From an uncultured Actinomycetota bacterium (GTDB taxonomy: Bacteria > Actinomycetota > Humimicrobiia > Humimicrobiales > Humimicrobiaceae), in assembly GCA_964610315.1 (NCBI GenBank), contig CAZSVM010000013.1, forward strand, positions 7,014 through 71,013: a stretch of 64,000 bases of DNA. The letters are read 5' to 3'. Of the stretch, positions 1 to 9,272 are shown piece by piece. Both the position numbers and the translations under genes were made by a program. The notes beneath the pieces are model-generated. The model saw nothing but the letters and a program-made list of their open reading frames with translations, had not been told where the DNA came from and made no database searches. Numbering within the stretch: the stretch's first letter is position 1; each line of letters begins with the position of its first letter.

Positions 1-62
1 ACTCTAAATATAGTTTTTAATTTTAAAAATTAAAGCTTTTTAAAAGCGAGGTGGTTTAAGTT

Positions 63-1211
63 ATAAATAGAACAATCATTATTTTTCTGATATGTTTGTT
101 CTTAGTTTCTACAGTAAGTTGCAGAAAAGAAGTTGTAGAAGAACCGGTTATCGAGAAACCAGAAGAAAAGCTTACCGTTGAAGAGCCAGTAGAAGAAGAG
201 TCAGTTGAAGAGGATCAGGCTATTGTTGAGGAACCTGTTAAAGAAGAGGTTGTGGCAGAGGAGCCAGTTGAGGAAGCCGAACCATTACTAAATGGGATTA
301 TTGTTGAAAATCTGAGTATTGCTCTTACAAAAATAAAAAGAAAACAGGACTACTGGGATTCAAAAATAGATCACATATGTTTAGATTTTACTCTTCGTAA
401 AATAAAAACATCGGGGGAATCCAATCTTAAATTTTCTTTTGAAATTATTGATGATCATGGAAATATTTATGATGAAAATAATATGAGCCTCTTTTATGGC
501 CCCGACTCTGGCGAAACTAAAATTGGCCCAAACCTTGGACGGTATGACGACACTTATTGTCAGGATGCTAATATAGACATCGATAAAGCCCCTATTGGAT
601 TCACATGGACTGTCCCTCTCCGTTCTTTTGAAATACCTAGTAGTGCTCCTTTAACAAAACTTAAAATATATTACCAAAAAGGATACCGAGACGAAAAAAA
701 AGAATTAACCACCATAGATCTTTCCAACTTTAAACCTTCACCGGTTGAAGATTTTTATTCTCAATTAAAAGATGAAAACCTTCTTTTCCTACCATATACT
801 TTTAAAAAAGAATATTTGTCAATGACTATACAAAAAATGCAAATTAAAGAAGGAAAAGAAATACAAGAAGGAGTATCTCAACCAATGGATGAACGAGAAG
901 CCTTCATAATCCCGATTACTTTTATAAACGATGATTATAATTCTATTAATTTTAGTTTAGAAGGCATTGGAATCCAAAATCCAAATGGTGCAATCCTATG
1001 GGGATATTATACTGGATACGAAGGCGGCACACTGCCAGGAGATGGGGGTTTCACAGCTTCAATTCCAGAATTAAGCCAAAAGACAACTGAATTTCATATA
1101 ATAAGATTTTCAGATGAAGGGACGCCAAAAGCAATTCTATTTTATTCATTACCTGGGAAAGCCTCTGACAATATTACCATTTTGAAGATTTCTCCTGAAA
1201 ATTTTGAATAA
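63..1211 (+). CDS. hypothetical secreted protein or lipoprotein with N-terminal acidic Glu/Pro/Val-rich repeats
   Basis: ORF track 96..1211 (TTG start). The in-frame extension back to ATA at 63-65, preceded 9 nt by GAGGTGG, yields a textbook signal peptide MNRTIIIFLICLFLVSTVSC. About six EEPV-like repeats lie at nt ~130-290. No catalytic motif recognised. Confidence 0.45.
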   Translation: MNRTIIIFLICLFLVSTVSCRKEVVEEPVIEKPEEKLTVEEPVEEESVEEDQAIVEEPVKEEVVAEEPVEEAEPLLNGIIVENLSIALTKIKRKQDYWDSKIDHICLDFTLRKIKTSGESNLKFSFEIIDDHGNIYDENNMSLFYGPDSGETKIGPNLGRYDDTYCQDANIDIDKAPIGFTWTVPLRSFEIPSSAPLTKLKIYYQKGYRDEKKELTTIDLSNFKPSPVEDFYSQLKDENLLFLPYTFKKEYLSMTIQKMQIKEGKEIQEGVSQPMDEREAFIIPITFINDDYNSINFSLEGIGIQNPNGAILWGYYTGYEGGTLPGDGGFTASIPELSQKTTEFHIIRFSDEGTPKAILFYSLPGKASDNITILKISPENFE

Positions 1212-1459
1212 ACTTTTTAATTTTTTATTTTTTCAACATTTTAGTATATTTTTTAAGTTTGATACAGAAAGATGCAGATAAAAAAACTCTAATTACTTTG
1301 AAAGATATAGAAAGATACTATTAAAAATTTTTATTTAATAAAGATAATAGATGGTATATAAACAAGATTTAAACGTTTAGATTAATAACAAATTCTTTTA
1401 TAAAATAATAGGCCTTAATTCAATAAGAGGCTTATTTTATTAATTTAATTGATAAATAT

Positions 1460-1489
1460 TTGACATATCTATTGTAAAACACTTAAAAT
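1460..1489 (+). promoter_or_regulatory. near-consensus sigma70-type promoter (TTGACA, 18-nt spacer, TAAAAT) firing rightward into the convergent-gene gap
   Basis: TTGACA at 1460-1465 and TAAAAT at 1484-1489, read directly from the sequence. No downstream ORF longer than 11 codons before the convergent gene that ends at 1735. Confidence 0.3.
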
Positions 1490-1734
1490 ATGGGGAGAAT
1501 TCTATACAAAAGGAGCAATTTTGTATAACTATTATATTGTTCTAGTAATTTTATAACTTTTATTAAAATAATGTCAAGACGTAAAGATCTCTCAAACCTT
1601 TTATAATCCCACATTTGACTGCAACTGCGCTACTTTTGGTTCTTTCTACCATCTATCAAACCTCCATACACCTATTTTGCCCGAAGGGCGAACCTTTTAT
1701 ACTGTGTTAGGCGACTGCTTTGCCTGGCGACATT

Positions 1735-2703
1735 TTATAATTTTCCATTTTTTAATGTATTCAAATCGAATTTTTCAACTGATAAAATATTTAAAATGGG
1801 TCTTATATCACCCTCCCAGTCAAAGAGTAGGTTGTTAAATCCAATATACAAAGGTTCACACTCGATTTTAAATGGAATACTTTTAATTTTTCCCTTATTT
1901 CTTCTCTTCCCCTCCACATATAAAGATTTTGGAAGATTATCTGCACTACCAATTGCTACTTTACTCAAAACTTTATCCCACACTTCATTATGAATTAATT
2001 TCCTCCAATAATTAGGCAATAGCCTTCCTAATTCAGGAGATAATTTAGAAACTTTTTGGTAATCTCTATAATTAATCTGCTTGTTTAAAGAATTACCTTT
2101 TTCGCCTTTATACCTCCAAAATGTAACCATTGTATCCTTCAGGAGTGATAGGTCTTCTGTTACTCTCTTAATTATCAACATACGTGAAACTTGGAACTTT
2201 TTTGAAAGTTCTTCAATCATATCTATTGAATTAGAACCTACTCTGTTAATTTCTAAAAAACTTTCTTTTATTAAATTGTCTGGAAGCAATAGGTATCTTG
2301 CCATGTCGTGACACCAATCCTCAGGTGAAACCATCTTAAGCTTAGGAACTAAAGATGTGCAATCATAAAATAATATATGAGCTAATTCATGGCAAATTGT
2401 TGATCGTATTCTTACATCAGAGAATTTTTTATCCTCAGTGTCTAATGTACCATATTTGATTATAAAACCTCCTTGGATCGGTACTAAAAAACCCTCATCA
2501 AAAGTTGAGATTTTTTTATCTGGTTCTATGATAATTTTTATTCCCCTCAGATCTTCAATAACTTTGCATAGTGTTTTTTCGCAGACTGGAGGGGTAATAA
2601 ATCTAGTTTTCTTTTCATACTCCCGAAGAATATCCTTTACCCATTTCTGGATAAAATCCTTCTTCCTAATGAAATTGTTAGAAGTGCTCAAATAGATATT
2701 CAT
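1735..2703 (-). CDS. IrrE/ImmA-family (COG2856, peptidase M78-like) zinc metallopeptidase with ~200-aa C-terminal sensor-like extension
   Basis: HEXXH motif ICHELAHILFYD at residues ~105-109 of 322 aa. The protein is longer than a minimal ImmA domain. Its ATG overlaps the upstream gene's stop codon (ATGA at 2700-2703). Confidence 0.7.
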   Translation of the reverse strand: MNIYLSTSNNFIRKKDFIQKWVKDILREYEKKTRFITPPVCEKTLCKVIEDLRGIKIIIEPDKKISTFDEGFLVPIQGGFIIKYGTLDTEDKKFSDVRIRSTICHELAHILFYDCTSLVPKLKMVSPEDWCHDMARYLLLPDNLIKESFLEINRVGSNSIDMIEELSKKFQVSRMLIIKRVTEDLSLLKDTMVTFWRYKGEKGNSLNKQINYRDYQKVSKLSPELGRLLPNYWRKLIHNEVWDKVLSKVAIGSADNLPKSLYVEGKRRNKGKIKSIPFKIECEPLYIGFNNLLFDWEGDIRPILNILSVEKFDLNTLKNGKL

Positions 2704-4583
2704 ATTGGTAATTCTTCCTGTTTATACCTGGCTTCTACTTTATTTTTTGCAGCTCTTACTATTTCTTCTACCCTATTATTCACAAGATCAAGCTTAAAAT
2801 GCTTTCCACTCCTTTCTCTTACTAAAACCTCCTCAATTGTAGATGGAATTTCCTGATATACTTCAGGTATTTGAGGTTTTGGAGTGGAGTTCTCTAATTC
2901 CTCGTATATCCTCCCGCTGACTTCATATTCATAGCTTTGATAGACATAATGATCAAAGATTGAATCACCTACTCCAATATCCTTTTTTAACTCTTCTTTA
3001 ATCACCTTACCATAAATAGGTATTAAAAGAGGATCAATAAATACATACAATTTCCACAAAGCCTTATATTGTTCCATAACATTTCTAACTCTATCAGCTA
3101 GGCTCTTATGACGTTCCTCTAAGCTTTTCAAACATGTTTCACTATTGAGTTTCTCAATAACTTCATTAGGATTACCGTTATTATCTATTTTTTCGTATGA
3201 AACTAGAGCTTCTGCTTCCTTTAATGCCATTTTACTAGTGGGGCAAAATATAAGTATAGAACCCACTGGTAAACCGAATTTCTTTTCTATTTTTTCTTCT
3301 AATTCAGATCGGTTTTGAGGAAATGAGTACTTTACTGATAAATCAATCTCATCTGGTTTTCTTTGTTTATAAGCAGGTATTATATGGAATCGTTTGTAAA
3401 ATCTTCTGCTTTTTAAAGAAACTAAGAGTCTTTTAGCACCACTAGCTCTACTTTCATATTTTGGATTTTTGCTCATCTTTTCTATCTTTTTCTCAAGTAA
3501 GCTTATAAAACCTTCATCTCCAATATTATATAACTCATCAGATTCTGTTAAATTACATAAGGATGCAATTTTACCCAACATTGCACTTGCTTCACATTTT
3601 GCATGGTGATAGATAACTGCCTCAGTAAGAGCATATCTTACGTTTAAAATACCAATAATTGCAGAAAGAACATCATGACGCCAGTCTCCTCTTTTAGTGA
3701 GTTTAATCACCATTCGAGTCTTCCCATAGGTATCTTTATTTTGCCTTAGTTCAATATAATCAAACAGCCGATACAAAAAACCAGGTTTCATTTCTATTCC
3801 AGTAAATTCCACATCTCTTAAGATATAGCTAAGAAGGTCAGCGGATATTGTATTTCCTATTATGTCTGAAATATAAAATCTATCGGGGTTTAAGAGATTT
3901 TTTTCAATTTTTTCCTGTATTTCAGCTCTTTCTTTCTCAGATAATTTTTTTCCTTTCTCATTCTCAGTTTTTTTATCTTTTCTCTCAATAAACTGTTTTA
4001 TTGAACCCTCGTCTGGAAAGGCAATTGTCCATAAAACTTTTCTTGCATCTTCTAAAAGTCCTTGGTCATTTTTAATTATTTTCTCAAACTCATCTTTTTC
4101 CTTAAATCCAAATAGAGTGTAGGGAGCTAATTCTGGGGATTTCTTTAACACTTCAAGCTCGTTATTTATTAAATTTATCATTTTATCAATTCTTTCACTC
4201 TTGTCTCCTTTTTCAAGGATACCATTTTCATCCTCTAATGTATGAGAATATGGAATATGCATTATATCATGTAACAGAGCCGCTACTCTTATAAGTGGGG
4301 TATCATCTTTTATCCGCTTTAAGAACTCCCCCTTCTCGTCTTTATTTATAGAGATTGAAAGTTCAATATTTTCCTTTAGAGCGTCTATAAAGCGTTGAGA
4401 CATGTCTAAACAATCCAAACAATGAGCTGCTCTTGTATGAGTAGCAAAAGGGTATACTCGGTCAGCTATTCCAAGTTGTTTTATGCTGTATAATCGTTGA
4501 AAACATTTGGTATTAATAAATAAAAGTTCATATCCTTCAATTTTAACATCCCTATTTGGAATCCTAAAATTCTTTCTTTTCAT
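2700..4583 (-). CDS. SAMHD1/dGTPase-like HD-domain dNTP triphosphohydrolase with ~250-aa C-terminal extension
   Basis: Motifs FQRLYSIKQLG, ATHTRAAHCL, LLHDIMHIPYSH and DLLSYILRDVEFTG match the dGTPase/SAMHD1 HD signature. Probable start MKRKNF at 4583, with GGAGGG 7 nt upstream (ORF track begins at 4619). Confidence 0.75.
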   Translation of the reverse strand: MKRKNFRIPNRDVKIEGYELLFINTKCFQRLYSIKQLGIADRVYPFATHTRAAHCLDCLDMSQRFIDALKENIELSISINKDEKGEFLKRIKDDTPLIRVAALLHDIMHIPYSHTLEDENGILEKGDKSERIDKMINLINNELEVLKKSPELAPYTLFGFKEKDEFEKIIKNDQGLLEDARKVLWTIAFPDEGSIKQFIERKDKKTENEKGKKLSEKERAEIQEKIEKNLLNPDRFYISDIIGNTISADLLSYILRDVEFTGIEMKPGFLYRLFDYIELRQNKDTYGKTRMVIKLTKRGDWRHDVLSAIIGILNVRYALTEAVIYHHAKCEASAMLGKIASLCNLTESDELYNIGDEGFISLLEKKIEKMSKNPKYESRASGAKRLLVSLKSRRFYKRFHIIPAYKQRKPDEIDLSVKYSFPQNRSELEEKIEKKFGLPVGSILIFCPTSKMALKEAEALVSYEKIDNNGNPNEVIEKLNSETCLKSLEERHKSLADRVRNVMEQYKALWKLYVFIDPLLIPIYGKVIKEELKKDIGVGDSIFDHYVYQSYEYEVSGRIYEELENSTPKPQIPEVYQEIPSTIEEVLVRERSGKHFKLDLVNNRVEEIVRAAKNKVEARYKQEELPI

Positions 4584-4883
4584 ATAGCTTCCCTCCATTT
4601 TCAGGAATAAAGTTGTCAATCAAAATGCCTTTTTTAACTTGTTTCTTTACGAAATATTTTATTTTTGCCTTAATAATATATATTATTTAAATTATAAATA
4701 TAATACACACAATATTCAATTATTTACTTTTTTTCAGTTCTAGACAAAAAGTATAGTCCTAATTTCCTCTGGTTTATTTTCATAAAACTCTATGCTAAAC
4801 TTCTAAAAGTAGGTAGTTTATGACGAATTTTTTAATAAGCTTCCTAAAACAGCTTACAAAACTTTCTCTTACGGAGACTGATA

Positions 4884-6371
4884 ATGGAAAACGAAAAAGC
4901 AGTTGGTATCTGGATCCGGGTCTCTACTGAAGACCAGGCCAAAGGTGAAAGCCCAGAGCATCATGAAAAAAGAGCCCGTCTTTATGCCGAGTCCAAGGGC
5001 TGGAAGGTAAAGGAAGTATATCACCTTGAGGCAGTAAGCGGAAAATCAGTAATGGGTCTTCCAGAAACAAAAAGGATGCTCGCGGATATAGAAAGTGGCT
5101 ACATTACTGCTCTAATCTTCTCCAAACTTGCAAGACTTGCCCGAAATACCAAAGAGCTTCTAGAATTTTCTGAAATCTTCAGGGAATACAATGCAGATTT
5201 AATCTCCCTCCAGGAATCCATCGATACTTCAACCCCAGCTGGAAGGCTTTTTTACACCATAATTGCTGCAATGGCCCAGTGGGAAAGAGAAGAAATCTCA
5301 GATAGAGTGGCTGCCTCTGTTCCAATTAGAGCTATGCTTGGAAAATCCATTGGTGGCAAGGCTTCCTTTGGTTACCACTGGAAAGACAACAAATTAGTTC
5401 CCGATCCAAAAGAGGTACCAGTCAGGAAGTTAATCTATGAGCTTTTTTTGGAGCACAAGCGTAAAAAAACAGTAGCCAGAGTTTTAAATGAAGCCGGGTA
5501 TAGAACCAGAAAGGGATCAAAGTTCTGTGATACAACCATCGGAAGGCTTCTCAGAGATCCTACTGCCAAGGGAGTTCACCGAGCTAATTACACTAAAACT
5601 CTTGGAGAGAATAAAAAATGGGTCCTAAAACCAAAAGAGGAATGGGTCTTTACCAAGGTAGAGCCCATTGTCTCTGAAGAGCTCTGGGACGAGTGTAATC
5701 AGATTTTAGATGAGCAAAAAAAGAAAAACAAAATCCCGACTAGAAAACCTGTCCATATTTTTACCGGAATTGCCTACTGCCACTGTGGAAATAAGATGTA
5801 CGTACCTTCCAATTCCCCTAAATATACCTGCTATAAATGCAGAAACAAAATAGGAAAAGATGATTTAGAAGAGGTCTTCCACCAACAGCTTAAAACCTTC
5901 TTTTTCTCATCTTCAGAGATCAGTGACTACTTAAATAAAGCAGATAATGTTATAAAAGAAAAAGAAGAGCTACTGGCTAGCTTAATAGATGAGGAGAAAA
6001 AAAATAATCAGGAAATGGATAAAATCTACAATCTATATTTTGATGATAAGATAACAAGTGATGAATTTGGAGTTCGCCACAAACCTTTTGAAGAAAGGTT
6101 TTTACAATTAAAAGATAAAATTCCTAAACTTCAAGGTGAAATTGATTTTTTAAAAATCCAGTATCTATCCAGTGATAGAATACTAAATGAAGCTAAAGAT
6201 CTCTATTCCAGATGGCCAGAACTAGAGACAGAAGAAAAAAGAAAGATTGTTGAAAATGTTGCTGAAAAAATAATAGTTGGAACTGAAGATGTGACTATAA
6301 ATCTATGTTACCTCCCGTCATCCCCTCCCAAAATAGCGACATCTTCGCAACGCAATCTCAGGGGTTGGTAG
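4884..6371 (+). CDS. large serine recombinase (integrase)
   Basis: N-terminal resolvase catalytic domain (GIWIRVSTEDQ, catalytic Ser), followed by a recombinase domain and a Cys-rich zinc ribbon (CHCGNKMY...CYKCRNK). GGAGA ribosome-binding site before ATG. Confidence 0.85.
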   Translation: MENEKAVGIWIRVSTEDQAKGESPEHHEKRARLYAESKGWKVKEVYHLEAVSGKSVMGLPETKRMLADIESGYITALIFSKLARLARNTKELLEFSEIFREYNADLISLQESIDTSTPAGRLFYTIIAAMAQWEREEISDRVAASVPIRAMLGKSIGGKASFGYHWKDNKLVPDPKEVPVRKLIYELFLEHKRKKTVARVLNEAGYRTRKGSKFCDTTIGRLLRDPTAKGVHRANYTKTLGENKKWVLKPKEEWVFTKVEPIVSEELWDECNQILDEQKKKNKIPTRKPVHIFTGIAYCHCGNKMYVPSNSPKYTCYKCRNKIGKDDLEEVFHQQLKTFFFSSSEISDYLNKADNVIKEKEELLASLIDEEKKNNQEMDKIYNLYFDDKITSDEFGVRHKPFEERFLQLKDKIPKLQGEIDFLKIQYLSSDRILNEAKDLYSRWPELETEEKRKIVENVAEKIIVGTEDVTINLCYLPSSPPKIATSSQRNLRGW

Positions 6372-7410
6372 CCACTATCAACATAAAATTACAGGGAAAA
6401 CTGTAAGAAAAATTATTTCTGGTAATAATTACCTCCTTATTTTCCAGGGGCTGCCTTAAATCCTCTATAAAATTTCTGGGGAATTGTGAAAATTCATCCA
6501 GGAACAATAAACCTTTATGCGTCAGACTGATTTCACCTGGTCTGGGACTGATACCTCCTCCAATAAGTCCTATCCTGCTTATAGTATGATGAGGGCTTCT
6601 AAAGGGCCTTTTTTGTATCAGGTTGCTGACATTCTTTTCACGTAAACTATAAATTTTGGTAACCTCTATACATTCCTGCATATTTAAATCAGGCATTATG
6701 GTAACCGCTCTTCTGGCAAGCATTGTCTTACCGCTGCCGGGAGGGCCTATAAGCATTACATTGTGCCTTCCTCCTACAGCTATCTCCAGAGCTCTTTTTG
6801 CCTTAAGCTGACCTTTTACATCCTTAAAGTCAAAGTTATAAGAGGTATGCTTTCTGGCAATATTATTATTGACCTTATATATAAACTTCTCCGTTCCCTC
6901 TTTACCGGAAAGAGCTTCTACTGCTTCTAATAGATTCCTGCAGGCAACTATTCTTACACCGGAAATAAAAGAAACCTGGTTGGCTATCCCATAGGGCACG
7001 AAAAAAAAGCTTTTTGAACCCTTCTGTGCTTCTTCTGCCATAGAAATTAAACCTCTCACCGGATTTATGCTTCCGTCCAGTGACAGTTCACCTACAAAAC
7101 AGGATTCCTTTGAAATACTACAATTAATTTGGCCGCTGGCGGAAAGAATGGAAAGAGCTATGGGTAAATCATAAAAAGAGCCGTCTTTTTTTATATCTGC
7201 CGGCGACAGATTTACAATTATTTTTTTTACCGGAAAATCAAAACCGCTGTTAATGACTGCAGATCTTACTCTCTGTCTGGATTCATTTACTGCCTTTCCC
7301 GGAAGGCCCACGATTATAAATTCAGGCAGACCTCTTGTTATATGAACCTCTACCGATACTCTTACCGCATCGACACCGGTTAATGTGAAGCTGTCTAACT
7401 TAAATAGCAT
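6358..7410 (-). pseudogene. comM: comM/yifB (Mg-chelatase-like AAA+ competence protein) 5' fragment, truncated after ...IVATNP by element insertion
   Basis: N-terminal ComM domain and AAA+ Walker A (GPPGSGKTMLA) are present. The protein stops right after the NP that precedes the CPCG motif in full-length ComM/YifB (~500 aa; here 350 aa). Confidence 0.8.
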
Positions 7411-7541
7411 GTACTAATTGTATATGTAAATACACATTTAGTCAATTATACATATAATGCGCTTATTTCTTTTTAATTTCTCCTAAGGCTAATTTTTTCA
7501 GGTAAGAAAAGAGTTATAATAGAGATCAGGACAACCCAGGA

Positions 7542-8780
7542 CTATGAATATGCTTCCAATCTTTTTTTATATTCGAGAAGAGCTGTTTTTTTTCTTTTTC
7601 TTTCATTGAACATAGATTTCATCAACAGCCGATAATATCTTATTCTTTTCGTTTTTCTATCAATTTGCCCCTTCATCTCTGCTGCTCGGATTCCAGGACG
7701 TTTCTGAAACATGTAAACCTCTACGTAGTCTAAGCTCACTTCATCCAGTAACCGGCAGGTATCCTTAAAGTCTTCTTCTGACTCGGTTGGGAAACCCACC
7801 ATGAGTTGACTCCGAATCATTATTTTTGGGAACTCTTTATTCATAATACGAATGGTCTCTTTAAAATTACTTATTGTATATCCCCGGTTCATGAGGCTTA
7901 AAATTCTATCATTCCCTGATTCCGCTGCCGTGGAAAGATAAGATATATTCCCGGTTTGGAAGATCTCGCGGAGCTCGGGCATCATCTCAATCAAAAATCG
8001 GGGTTGGATGTTTCGCAGTCTGATTTTGAAATCGCCCTTCATTTTAATTATTTCTCTGAGAAGAATAACCAGGTTTATTCCTAAATCTCTGCCATATGCC
8101 CCCACATTAGTTCCAATCAATCCAAATTCTTTATAATTTTTCTCTAGTCCCTTTTTGACTTCCTTTATGATGCTGTCGATGGATTTGCTCTTCAAATTTC
8201 CCCGGCTAAGTTTGACCGCACAATAAGAACAATTACTCAGGCAACCTGTAGATACTTTTATTAGGAAAATACCTGGCCCATAGACATTGATTGCCTGGTC
8301 AACAGAATACATTTTCATTAGTTTCAGAGGATTTACAAGGATTCTTCTAATCCTAGAATTTTTGGAATTTCTATTTTCCTCACCAAAGTGGAATAGTGGA
8401 ATTAAAAAATTCGCATGGATATTTTCTGCCTTTTTTTCAAAAGCAAACATTTCATCCACTCTTGTTAAATCATCCGAACCGAAGGTAATTCCCTGGTAAA
8501 TCTCCCGAATACAACTGTTATTGATTTTGGGAAGGCAGCCCCATACTATAAATTCAGTGGAGGGATTTTTTTTTGTCTTTAAATAATTAATAATGCTCAA
8601 GGATTCTTTTTCAGTTTCTTCTGTGAGCCCACATGCATTAAAAAATATGATGTCTGCCTTTCGAAAATCGCTGGTGATTTTCCAGCCATTTTTTCTGAAA
8701 AGCTTTACCATTCTTGCCGAATCGATTCGACTCTCAGGACAGCCATTGGCAGTCACATAGACGAAAGAATTAGATTTCAT
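7542..8780 (-). CDS. radical SAM methylthiotransferase, MiaB/RimO/MtaB family
   Basis: N-terminal MTTase domain (VYVTANGCPES...FFNACG) plus radical SAM CLSNCSYC motif. No obvious C-terminal TRAM domain. Confidence 0.75.
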   Translation of the reverse strand: MKSNSFVYVTANGCPESRIDSARMVKLFRKNGWKITSDFRKADIIFFNACGLTEETEKESLSIINYLKTKKNPSTEFIVWGCLPKINNSCIREIYQGITFGSDDLTRVDEMFAFEKKAENIHANFLIPLFHFGEENRNSKNSRIRRILVNPLKLMKMYSVDQAINVYGPGIFLIKVSTGCLSNCSYCAVKLSRGNLKSKSIDSIIKEVKKGLEKNYKEFGLIGTNVGAYGRDLGINLVILLREIIKMKGDFKIRLRNIQPRFLIEMMPELREIFQTGNISYLSTAAESGNDRILSLMNRGYTISNFKETIRIMNKEFPKIMIRSQLMVGFPTESEEDFKDTCRLLDEVSLDYVEVYMFQKRPGIRAAEMKGQIDRKTKRIRYYRLLMKSMFNERKRKKTALLEYKKRLEAYS

Positions 8781-8957
8781 TGTAATAGTCCCGGAAACCC
8801 TGACATTGTTGATAAACTATCAGAAAAAAAAACAGCTGTCAAGCTCGAAATGAAGGTCTATTTTTGTCTATATATAGGTTGGTTATCCAGAATTAAGTTC
8901 TTATAAATTCTTATAAATTTGGGTAGTGGGTCAATTTAACCATTAACACCTTCTATA

Positions 8958-9272
8958 TTATTTCTTTGATGCCAGTTTTTTAGCTGTCTCTACAGCCACT
9001 TCATAAGAGACCAGTGGAATAAGTTCGACCTCAATAAAGGGATACATTGGTGTTTGAGCTATTAATCCCTGGAGTTCTTCATTAGAGTCCACTTCAAATA
9101 TGGCATAGCTTCCTTTTCTACCAGCTATTATACCTCCCGCTAAAATTTTTCCTTTTTGTTTATAGCTATTAAGGATTTCAACCTGCTTTCCAGAAATTTC
9201 GAAAAACTGCTCGAGCGGAATTGATGGTAATCCTTTTACTTCACCTTTGAATAAAAACAACATAGTTATCAC
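8958..9272 (-). CDS. small hypothetical protein, possibly muconolactone-isomerase/YciI-like alpha+beta fold
   Basis: 104-aa ORF. Weak resemblance (YAIFEVDSNEELQGLIAQTPMYPFIEVELIPL) to muconolactone isomerase-like proteins. Confidence 0.35.
   Translation of the reverse strand: MITMLFLFKGEVKGLPSIPLEQFFEISGKQVEILNSYKQKGKILAGGIIAGRKGSYAIFEVDSNEELQGLIAQTPMYPFIEVELIPLVSYEVAVETAKKLASKK

Follow-up and report, generated by a model that had tools for sequence, protein, structure and literature searches.

The window analysed here comprises 64,000 nucleotides (nt) of contig CAZSVM010000013.1 (GCA_964610315.1) from an uncultured Actinomycetota bacterium. Its left end lies within an integrative element that was very likely inserted in the competence gene comM (yifB) by a large serine recombinase (LSR). 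Sequence comparison places the attachment site of the element, attP, inside the gene of that recombinase, whose full form would encode a fusion of the LSR with an XRE-type helix-turn-helix (HTH) domain. Because attP is within the LSR-XRE reading frame, integration splits the recombinase gene. We propose that LSR dimers bound to attP and to the comM target, attB, would exchange strands at a CA/TG dinucleotide. Integration detaches the HTH domain from the LSR, leaving a form of 495 amino acids (aa), and excision would restore both comM and the LSR-XRE fusion gene. The features of the window that carry this proposal are as follows.

1..6358, right-hand part of the integrated element (LSR-side arm), continuing left of the window
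4884..6371, + strand, large serine recombinase, integrated truncated form of 495 aa, ending ...QRNLRGW and a stop
6347..6358, + strand, P' half-site of attP in the junction attR: GCAACGC (6347-6353) and spacer AATCT (6354-6358), in LSR codons Q-R-N-L
6359..6360, crossover dinucleotide, CA on the + strand and TG of the comM Cys351 codon, the only sequence common to attR, attL and attB at the break
6361..6400, B half-site of attB in attR, antisense comM codons ...F-M-L-I-V-A-T-N-P
6358..7410, - strand, comM/yifB 5' fragment of 350 codons, its open reading frame (ORF) ending ...LIVATNP and a stop
6360-6358, - strand, comM stop codon TGA, created where TG of comM meets an A of the element

The interrupted comM gene and its junctions

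The first-pass annotation of this DNA had described a comM reading frame that stops at ...LIVATNP at position 6358. Those coordinates hold, and the frame converges on that of the recombinase with an overlap of 14 nt (6358-6371). Pfam searches detected ChlI and positions 1-158 of the 207 of the Mg_chelatase profile in the fragment, and no Mg_chelatase_C, so that the window ORF lacks the complete ComM domain set (ChlI, full Mg_chelatase, Mg_chelatase_C) in one polypeptide. Its close relatives, from Candidatus Humimicrobiaceae and other Actinomycetota metagenome-assembled genomes, are 79-85% identical, 513-516 aa long and carry PF13335. As they reach that length with a C-terminal domain, the window comM is 163-166 aa short and its end is not natural. 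By these matches the host is a Candidatus Humimicrobiaceae-like member of the Actinomycetota, and a Leptospira origin, at first suggested by the base composition, can be rejected. The annotation had placed the break before a CPCG segment and put the deficit at about 150 aa; the break does precede the Cys-rich motif, but the motif reads CYCG in this lineage and the deficit is larger.

We compared the fragment with an uninterrupted comM in a relative, contig L085, where an intact gene of 513 aa is followed by dprA, a 140-aa gene, an Xer-like gene and rpsB-tsf-pyrH-frr. The window fragment matches L085 1217-2263 (81% nt, 85% aa identity), and the match ends exactly at the break, as expected of an insertion in comM. 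The annotation had seen no 3' part of the gene in positions 1-1734 and placed it beyond the left end; tblastn found no match to it in the window, nor in the 5.1 kb to the left of the window. Searching with the ComM C-terminus yielded an orphan Mg_chelatase_C protein, whose cluster mate P0127 leads to three contigs with the comM 3' part, L087, L088 and L089 (sequencing runs SRR14802572-74). The window's own sequence is present in two of those runs, SRR14802573 and -74. These contigs are the only far-end junctions, P0121 being an intact comM at a contig end and P0124 starting too far downstream. In them, element genes are followed by the comM 3' part, dprA and the 140-aa gene, the same order as at the empty site. 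In a scan of genome collections with back-translated ComM patterns, which were too generic, all matches were ComMs of other phyla (L003-L082; 40-47% identity).

The orphan 3' part corresponds to L085 2264-2748 (79% nt identity). The two halves thus abut at L085 2263/2264 with no gap and no overlap, their divergence from L085 is similar (81% vs 79% nt), and joining them in silico gives a ComM of 516 aa. Side by side in comM sense, the junctions and the empty site read:

attR, window: ...ACCAACCCC TG AGATTGCGTTGCG...
attL, L087: ...GTGCAGGAA TG TTATTGCGGATA...
attB, L085: ...ACTAACCCC TG TTATTGCGGATA...

This comparison narrows the crossover from the 6355-6362 given in the annotation to 6359-6360. 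The core is 2 base pairs (bp) long and directly follows the Pro350 codon in the conserved ...NP/C.CG motif; a core of this length is expected of a serine recombinase. The rebuilt attB of the host is predicted to be ...GCTACCAACCCC TG TTATTGCGGATATTTTGG... We also noted that on L087 (9914-10420, + strand) a frame of 168 aa (MQE-CYCGYFG...) starts with a GTG that belongs to the element and runs into the comM 3' part, from which a ComM C-terminal fragment could in principle be translated.

A recombinase gene that contains its own attachment site

The protein encoded at 4884..6371 is, on its sequence features, a large serine recombinase. Pfam detected Resolvase (PF00239, 1.4e-30, residues 9-145) and Recombinase (PF07508, 3.7e-19), and Zn_ribbon_recom (PF13408) gave a weak match (E 6e-4, 20.5 bits against a cut-off of 25.3). 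In a 40-sequence family alignment, S14 of the catalytic-serine motif IRVSTEDQ is nearly invariant, and four cysteines (C299, C301, C316, C319) are invariant. The following features of the class were found: the catalytic domain, the recombinase and zinc-ribbon regions with a coiled coil, the 2-bp core, and an attP that is an imperfect inverted repeat. The LSR body comprises residues 1-491. The tail R-G-W and the stop come from antisense comM DNA, as the annotation had read the last codons before 6371. It had also pointed out that the recombinase frame crosses the junction. This is so, but the crossing is not incidental, since attP lies within a longer LSR-XRE gene.

The longer gene emerged when the circular junction was rebuilt from the window sequence up to 6358, CA and the reverse complement of the element end in L087. 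The predicted attP junction is ...CAACGCAATCT-CA-TTCCTGCACTACC..., which joins in silico the window side GCAACGCAATCT, CA and the far side TTCCTGCACTACCTTACTGCAGG. In the rebuilt circle the LSR frame continues unbroken through 27 linker codons into the XRE-type tandem HTH gene (L087 9432-9842) with which the element ends on its other side; the resulting single ORF has 655 aa. The chance of such an open frame through the junction was estimated at roughly 5-10%. When the 655-aa protein was used as a query, 48 of the best 120 matches were natural proteins of at least 580 aa. Most of the natural fused proteins have 627-663 aa, with 94-98% query cover, 58-74% identity and Resolvase, Recombinase and HTH_3/HTH_19/HTH_31 domains. 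The other 72 were split forms of 493-519 aa, ending where the window LSR ends. In a protein library grouped at 50% identity, the match extends over the entire fusion in at least 13 separate clusters, down to 33% identity; judged by this spread, the fused architecture is old.

In the natural fusions the two parts are joined by a conserved linker peptide, QRN[FL]-IPALPFCH...YP..L.TLGDH.RKRRLDL. The attP site, GGCAACGC-N5-CA-N5-GCGTTGCC, is encoded by its codons Q-R-N-x / I-P-A-L-P. Wherever the repeat could be located in a fused gene, 8-bp inverted repeats are symmetric about the central dinucleotide; eight genes have CA there, and one, L098, has GA. The latter gene (4680-4735) has the symmetric repeats CAACAC-N-GTGTTG, and its central GA would predict a different target core. 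In a codon alignment of eight fused genes, synonymous-codon identity is 0.40 gene-wide, whereas it reaches 0.75-0.90 in the 12 top-scoring windows of 8 codons, every one of which lies on aa 481-501. An AlphaFold2 model of the fused protein P0132, made with 44 family sequences, shows long helices (343-446) between beta strands and a complete LSR, the last strands of which are at 460-475; helices at 519-632 form a tandem HTH that is predicted with confidence. Residues 477-497, between these parts, have a predicted local distance difference test score below 50 and are predicted to be disordered. A conserved peptide in a disordered linker, together with fixed synonymous sites, points to a DNA site embedded in the ORF.

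The L087 end also diverges as the partner of the window LSR should. The rebuilt fusion is 75-78% identical to the natural ones over the core and 46-58% over the HTH, and natural pairs at the same core identity have a mean HTH identity of 53%. Because the HTH divergence matches that of natural pairs, this end is the expected partner. In the integrated state, the LSR core with a short host-supplied tail is thus found at one end and the HTH at the opposite end, at least ~27 kb away. As the split forms keep intact ORFs, the integrated LSR core is presumably under selection.

We examined 82 related loci, 80 of them metagenomic and 2 on viral contigs. An LSR of ~495 aa is directly followed by a convergent comM 5' part (comM-N) ending at the same codon in 50 loci, and the intact fusion is present in 9. 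Another 12 have other sequence downstream, and 11 were too short to judge. The central CA is invariant in 48/48 unique junctions, the window's own included and the others from other organisms; as the same codon and dinucleotide recur in all of them, the junction does not result from chance. The P' half-site was defined from the consensus of these 48 junctions and fits one arm of the inverted repeat of the fused genes. The B half-site is conserved over them as GGG.TTCAT.GC.GC.AC.AGCATGAA. The tails of the split forms (RDS, RGSWQPPA and RDSWLQQA, each followed by a stop) are the comM codons ...A-A-M-N-P read antisense.

The arrangement recurs at the same comM codon in many phyla, and the source names of the family include Chloroflexi, Planctomycetes, Scalinduaceae, Aerophobetes and Patescibacteria. 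Its LSRs are 64-78% identical to that of the window, whereas the adjoining ComMs are only 42-57% identical, a pattern that would at least fit transfer of the element among hosts that are distantly related. In one subclade (L141 3829-3915 and L143 8524-8610, both - strand) the LSR 3' end is joined to an antisense tRNA-Ser(TGA), confirmed with ARAGORN, instead of comM, indicating that the family has been retargeted at least once.

Four other loci depart from the common arrangement. In L083 (6119-6475, - strand) an Alba-like ORF, at which the contig ends, continues in frame into just the final 34 codons of the LSR (...GTEDVTINLCYLPSPPKVMTSKQRNFMDL and a stop), with comM-N at 5083-6132; it may be a remnant lacking the LSR, or else a hitch-hiking element with no more than the P' half-site. 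In L169 (~6630-6975) the LSR P' arm and CA are followed by TGTCCTTGCGGC, the comM 3' part (C-P-C-G...), which is oriented like the LSR. The usual partner is the convergent comM 5' part, and this polarity is unexpected with a non-palindromic core. L139 (~3078-3338) has an LSR, a partial linker (IPALPFCHVALQAPKPISPNYP), a comM-N end (SFMLVAAMNP and a stop) and an inverted P' arm (TGAGGTTGC), which could represent a nested or tandem arrangement or a chimeric assembly. In L151 (~1567-1700) the LSR P' arm adjoins a tyrosine recombinase gene, in its C-terminal part (...GYDIRTVQELLGH...), by a different target or a rearrangement.

Gene content and nature of the element

The annotation had the element exceed 6.3 kb and continue left of the window. 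A Logan contig, L002, extends the window sequence 5,117 nt further left, and its contig continues for another 1,542 nt; the extension carries further element genes. The contigs of the element give it a size of at least ~27 kb, of which 21.4 kb were read. The genes read on the two arms are:

96..1211, + strand, cargo ORF of 371 aa with an acidic N-terminal repeat and no family match
1735..2703, - strand, IrrE/ImmA-like M78 metallopeptidase of 322 aa, weak match
2700..4619, - strand, HD-domain protein of 639 aa, cargo, possibly defence-related
LSR arm further left (L002), Xer-like tyrosine recombinase, four hypothetical secreted or membrane proteins, and an ATPase resembling type IV coupling proteins (T4CPs)
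HTH arm (L087), PKD-repeat protein, 680-aa T4CP/HerA-like ATPase with a nuclease-like tail, and 494-aa secreted protein
HTH arm (L087), continued, two RuvC-like genes, DnaD/HTH_36-like initiator and the XRE gene

The 371-aa ORF had no match in Pfam, PHROG, NCBIfam or PADLOC. The M78 peptidase matched PF06114 below the cut-off (E=1.7e-3), PHROG 2439, a transcription regulator (3.8e-12), and a capP/RmrA-like PADLOC model (5e-8); M78 genes are also found near the fused recombinase in L116 and L175. For the HD protein, Pfam HD was just below the cut-off (E=2.9e-4), and PHROG 35128, of unknown function (2e-14), and, weakly, the PADLOC dGTPase model (3.4e-4) were matched. As PADLOC gave weak matches only on the window cargo, no defence system is claimed. 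The ATPase of the LSR arm has TrwB_AAD_bind and TraG-D_C matches, and that of the HTH arm is DUF87/FtsK-HerA-like with TraD/VirD4-like matches below the cut-off. The two RuvC-like genes (L087 1610-2161 and 2189-2686; 183 and 165 aa) are adjacent paralogs beside the initiator gene.

At the fused loci L092, L116, L172 and L175, the gene order is the one that a circular permutation of the window element would give. Variable cargo and the LSR-HTH gene are framed by large ATPase genes of T4CP-like type, one or two per locus (two in L092). Among the cargo genes of these loci are ThsB-TIR, QueC/TGT/Ogg, SLATT, SMODS, a FokI-like nuclease and methyltransferases. A slot downstream of the fused recombinase holds defence-type cargo that differs per element (L092 12034-16187; L172 12256-14444; L175 12291-14992): ThsB-TIR, QueC/TGT/Ogg (a 7-deazaguanine-type module), SLATT, DUF6602 with SMODS-AGS_C, and a FokI-like nuclease. 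The HD and M78 genes of the window correspond to the upstream side of the recombinase, and the downstream equivalent is the PKD-repeat protein of L087.

The G+C content of the recombinase gene is 0.40-0.42 (window 4751-5750), against 0.26-0.34 in the cargo to its left (1-4750), and resembles that of the host flank (0.35-0.41). This contrast fits a conserved backbone gene beside recently swapped cargo. Scans of the LSR start region for promoters, terminators and repeats gave counts not clearly above shuffled expectation in this AT-rich spacer, and for that reason we propose no operator. An Rfam scan of positions 1-9000 gave no matches.

Integrative and conjugative elements (ICEs) combine an integrase with a relaxase, a coupling protein and mating-pore (type IV secretion) genes; of these, the integrase and two T4CP/HerA-like ATPases were seen here. 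The integrative elements of actinomycetes (AICEs) have an integrase, a replication initiator and a single FtsK/TraB-like translocase for double-stranded DNA; here a DnaD/HTH_36-like initiator and DUF87/FtsK-HerA-like ATPases are present, and the family occurs far outside Actinomycetota. Assignment to either class would be tentative. From its gene content, the element appears to be integrative, plasmid-like, self-replicating and possibly conjugative, and to have slots for cargo next to its recombinase.

The element probably has its own regulator in the HTH domain, which would exist only as long as the element is an episome. The orphan HTH of the integrated copy faces the antisense side of the comM 3' part and dprA, and is probably silent. 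Integration might thus switch the regulatory state of the element or the directionality of the recombinase. We regard it as possible, though rather doubtful, that attP in the linker serves as a built-in sensor of the integration state and hence as a genuine state-dependent switch of regulation or directionality. In one variant, an ImmR-like autorepressor would be made only in the episome. M78/ImmA-type peptidases cleave XRE repressors in ICEBs1-like systems. The more novel alternative would be a bidirectional serine-integrase switch without a separate recombination directionality factor (RDF). No candidate RDF was identified in the element, and RDFs are not known to share a sequence signature. 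For the host, the interruption of comM probably lowers natural transformation, an effect of comM loss that has been proposed in the literature to benefit mobile elements.

A number of observations weigh against an element that integrates and excises as proposed. The two arms are on separate contigs that do not overlap, with a gap of unknown size between them; because they are not joined by sequence, we infer a single element rather than show one, and its circular form is an in silico reconstruction from the two contigs. Relaxase and mating-pore genes, which conjugation would require, were not seen in the ~21 kb read, from which the middle of the element is missing. The far-end half-site in L087 is degenerate, GCACTACC against the consensus GCGTTGCC, with agreement at 5/8 positions, so that the window copy may excise poorly or not at all; the three changes are synonymous, and A-L-P is still encoded. 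Ahead of the orphan HTH domain there is neither an ATG nor a GTG start codon; the one possible start is a TTG within the conserved motif KTLGDH. Lastly, intact fusion genes lie on very long contigs (143-360 kb), which is hard to square with a small episome. Among the long contigs with intact LSR-XRE fusions and perfect attP repeats are L172 (Ga0172379_10000123, 206 kb), L116 (360 kb) and L106 (144 kb); contigs of this kind known by name are Ga0172379_10000123, Ga0082335_1000054 and the Hain-H51 contig. They could be chromosomes, large episomes or misassemblies. In L172 the housekeeping-type gene lgt is ~10 kb from the fusion.

It is conceivable, if doubtful, that the window copy arrived as described but is now a decaying, immobilised island that no longer excises. 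The 5/8 fit of its far half-site to the family repeat suggests this, the insertion looks fixed in that the attL junction is present in three samples and the window attR in two, and the relative L083, with its 34 residual LSR codons beside comM-N, shows that decay occurs in the family. Nevertheless, the copy has an intact P' half-site and intact ORFs for both the LSR and the HTH. The synonymous nature of the P-arm changes, and a linker and HTH that diverge like those of active-looking fused genes, fit selection on the fused frame. Moreover, LSR half-sites tolerate asymmetry.

The unassembled gap between the two contigs, the possibly nested or tandem arrangement of L139 and the tyrosine recombinase that is also on the element would suit a composite of tandem elements, with the LSR end and the HTH end stemming from different insertions. 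We consider this unlikely, as the HTH end diverges to just the degree that a partner of this LSR should, the reading frame is kept across the rebuilt junction, and the gene order on both arms fits single fused loci once circularly permuted.

A temperate prophage with a serine integrase, comparable to A118 in comK of Listeria or to sr1WO in the Mg-chelatase gene of Wolbachia, in place of a plasmid-like or conjugative element, is quite improbable. PHROG matches were obtained for the XRE repressor-like HTH, the DnaD-like initiator, the RuvC-like resolvases and the M78 peptidase, phage WO sr1WO enters a magnesium chelatase gene via a serine recombinase (PMC9203015), and part of the element is unseen. 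However, no capsid, portal, terminase or tail match was found in ~21 kb, the only weak 'terminase' match lying in a T4CP/HerA-like ATPase, and no structural PHROG was matched by the ten element proteins scanned from both arms, the gap being unseen. Two T4CP-like ATPases flank the recombinase region here and in the fused relatives. In addition, two scans of the 2.9 million viral contigs of IMG/VR gave only two distant relatives (53-54% identity), with no HTH domain and no comM detected nearby.

That ComM of this organism naturally ends at residue 350 beside an unrelated recombinase gene, the outcome named beforehand as refuting the insertion, can be dismissed: two database proteins, P0001 and P0072, do end at ...ATNP after 349 aa, but both adjoin a convergent LSR tail, the remaining close relatives all have 513-516 aa with a C-terminal domain, the AAA+ profile is cut off at position 158/207, an empty site exists, and the missing part is present in the same samples in the expected synteny.

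Comparison with known systems

LSR insertion in comM itself is already documented and is a common pattern. In the survey of Durrant 2022 (PMC10083194), the comM/yifB gene ('magnesium chelatase/ATP-dependent protease') is the target of 12.4% of the predicted site-specific LSRs and the most enriched LSR target, and DNA competence genes are enriched. The Wolbachia phage WO sr1WO also targets a Mg-chelatase gene by a serine recombinase (PMC9203015). The present element resembles these in that the LSR inserts within a competence-associated coding sequence, pieces of which flank the element. It differs in the attP inside the recombinase ORF and the C-terminal XRE domain, which are not described in those reports; 'helix-turn-helix' is absent from the Durrant main text (PMC10083194). 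The family further differs in that it is not viral in IMG/VR. In the literature searched, which lacks most subscription-journal papers, no description of an LSR-XRE fusion or of attP inside an LSR gene was found.

What is new relative to known comM insertion is thus an LSR gene with its own attP inside it, whose domain make-up would change with each integration and excision. The hotspot picture is refined to one conserved codon, at NP/C of the Cys-rich motif, in an interrupted competence gene that adjoins dprA. For annotation, ~495-aa recombinases whose unusual tails come from the host, and orphan XRE genes located where islands end, should be taken as the two halves of a single gene. Serine integrases are leading tools for large-DNA insertion, with direction control as the central question of the field, and the 650-aa and 495-aa forms offer a testable case for differences in activity, directionality and gene regulation. 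Engineered phiC31 Int-gp3 fusions are a precedent of sorts: a C-terminally appended RDF reportedly changes which pair of att sites is recombined. There the fusion is artificial and the appended protein is a known directionality factor; a role of the XRE domain in directionality would be an analogy. If the state sensor exists, integrase tools that respond to state would have a natural template in it, and the family would be a serine-recombinase counterpart, in several phyla, of the archaeal self-splitting integrases and of integration-dependent immunity.

In the former systems, the 'suicidal' tyrosine integrases of the SSV type (SSV1, pT26-2), the site also lies within the integrase ORF, integration splits it and excision restores it (PMC7253208, PMC8371274). 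In these, an archaeal tyrosine enzyme is killed by the split, which leaves two inactive pseudogenes. Here, in contrast, the enzyme is a bacterial serine recombinase, the split falls in a linker after the complete core, and residues 1-491 keep all LSR domains, so that an intact LSR is retained and an accessory HTH is lost. As for integration-dependent immunity, the mycobacteriophages BPs and Brujita have attP inside a regulatory gene, and integration alters its product and the regulatory state (PMC4557955, PMC3694055). Their repressor gene is separate and lies beside a tyrosine integrase; the repressor loses a degradation tag on integration and is then stable and active. In the element described here, the XRE domain is fused to a serine recombinase, and integration instead detaches it from its promoter and start codon.

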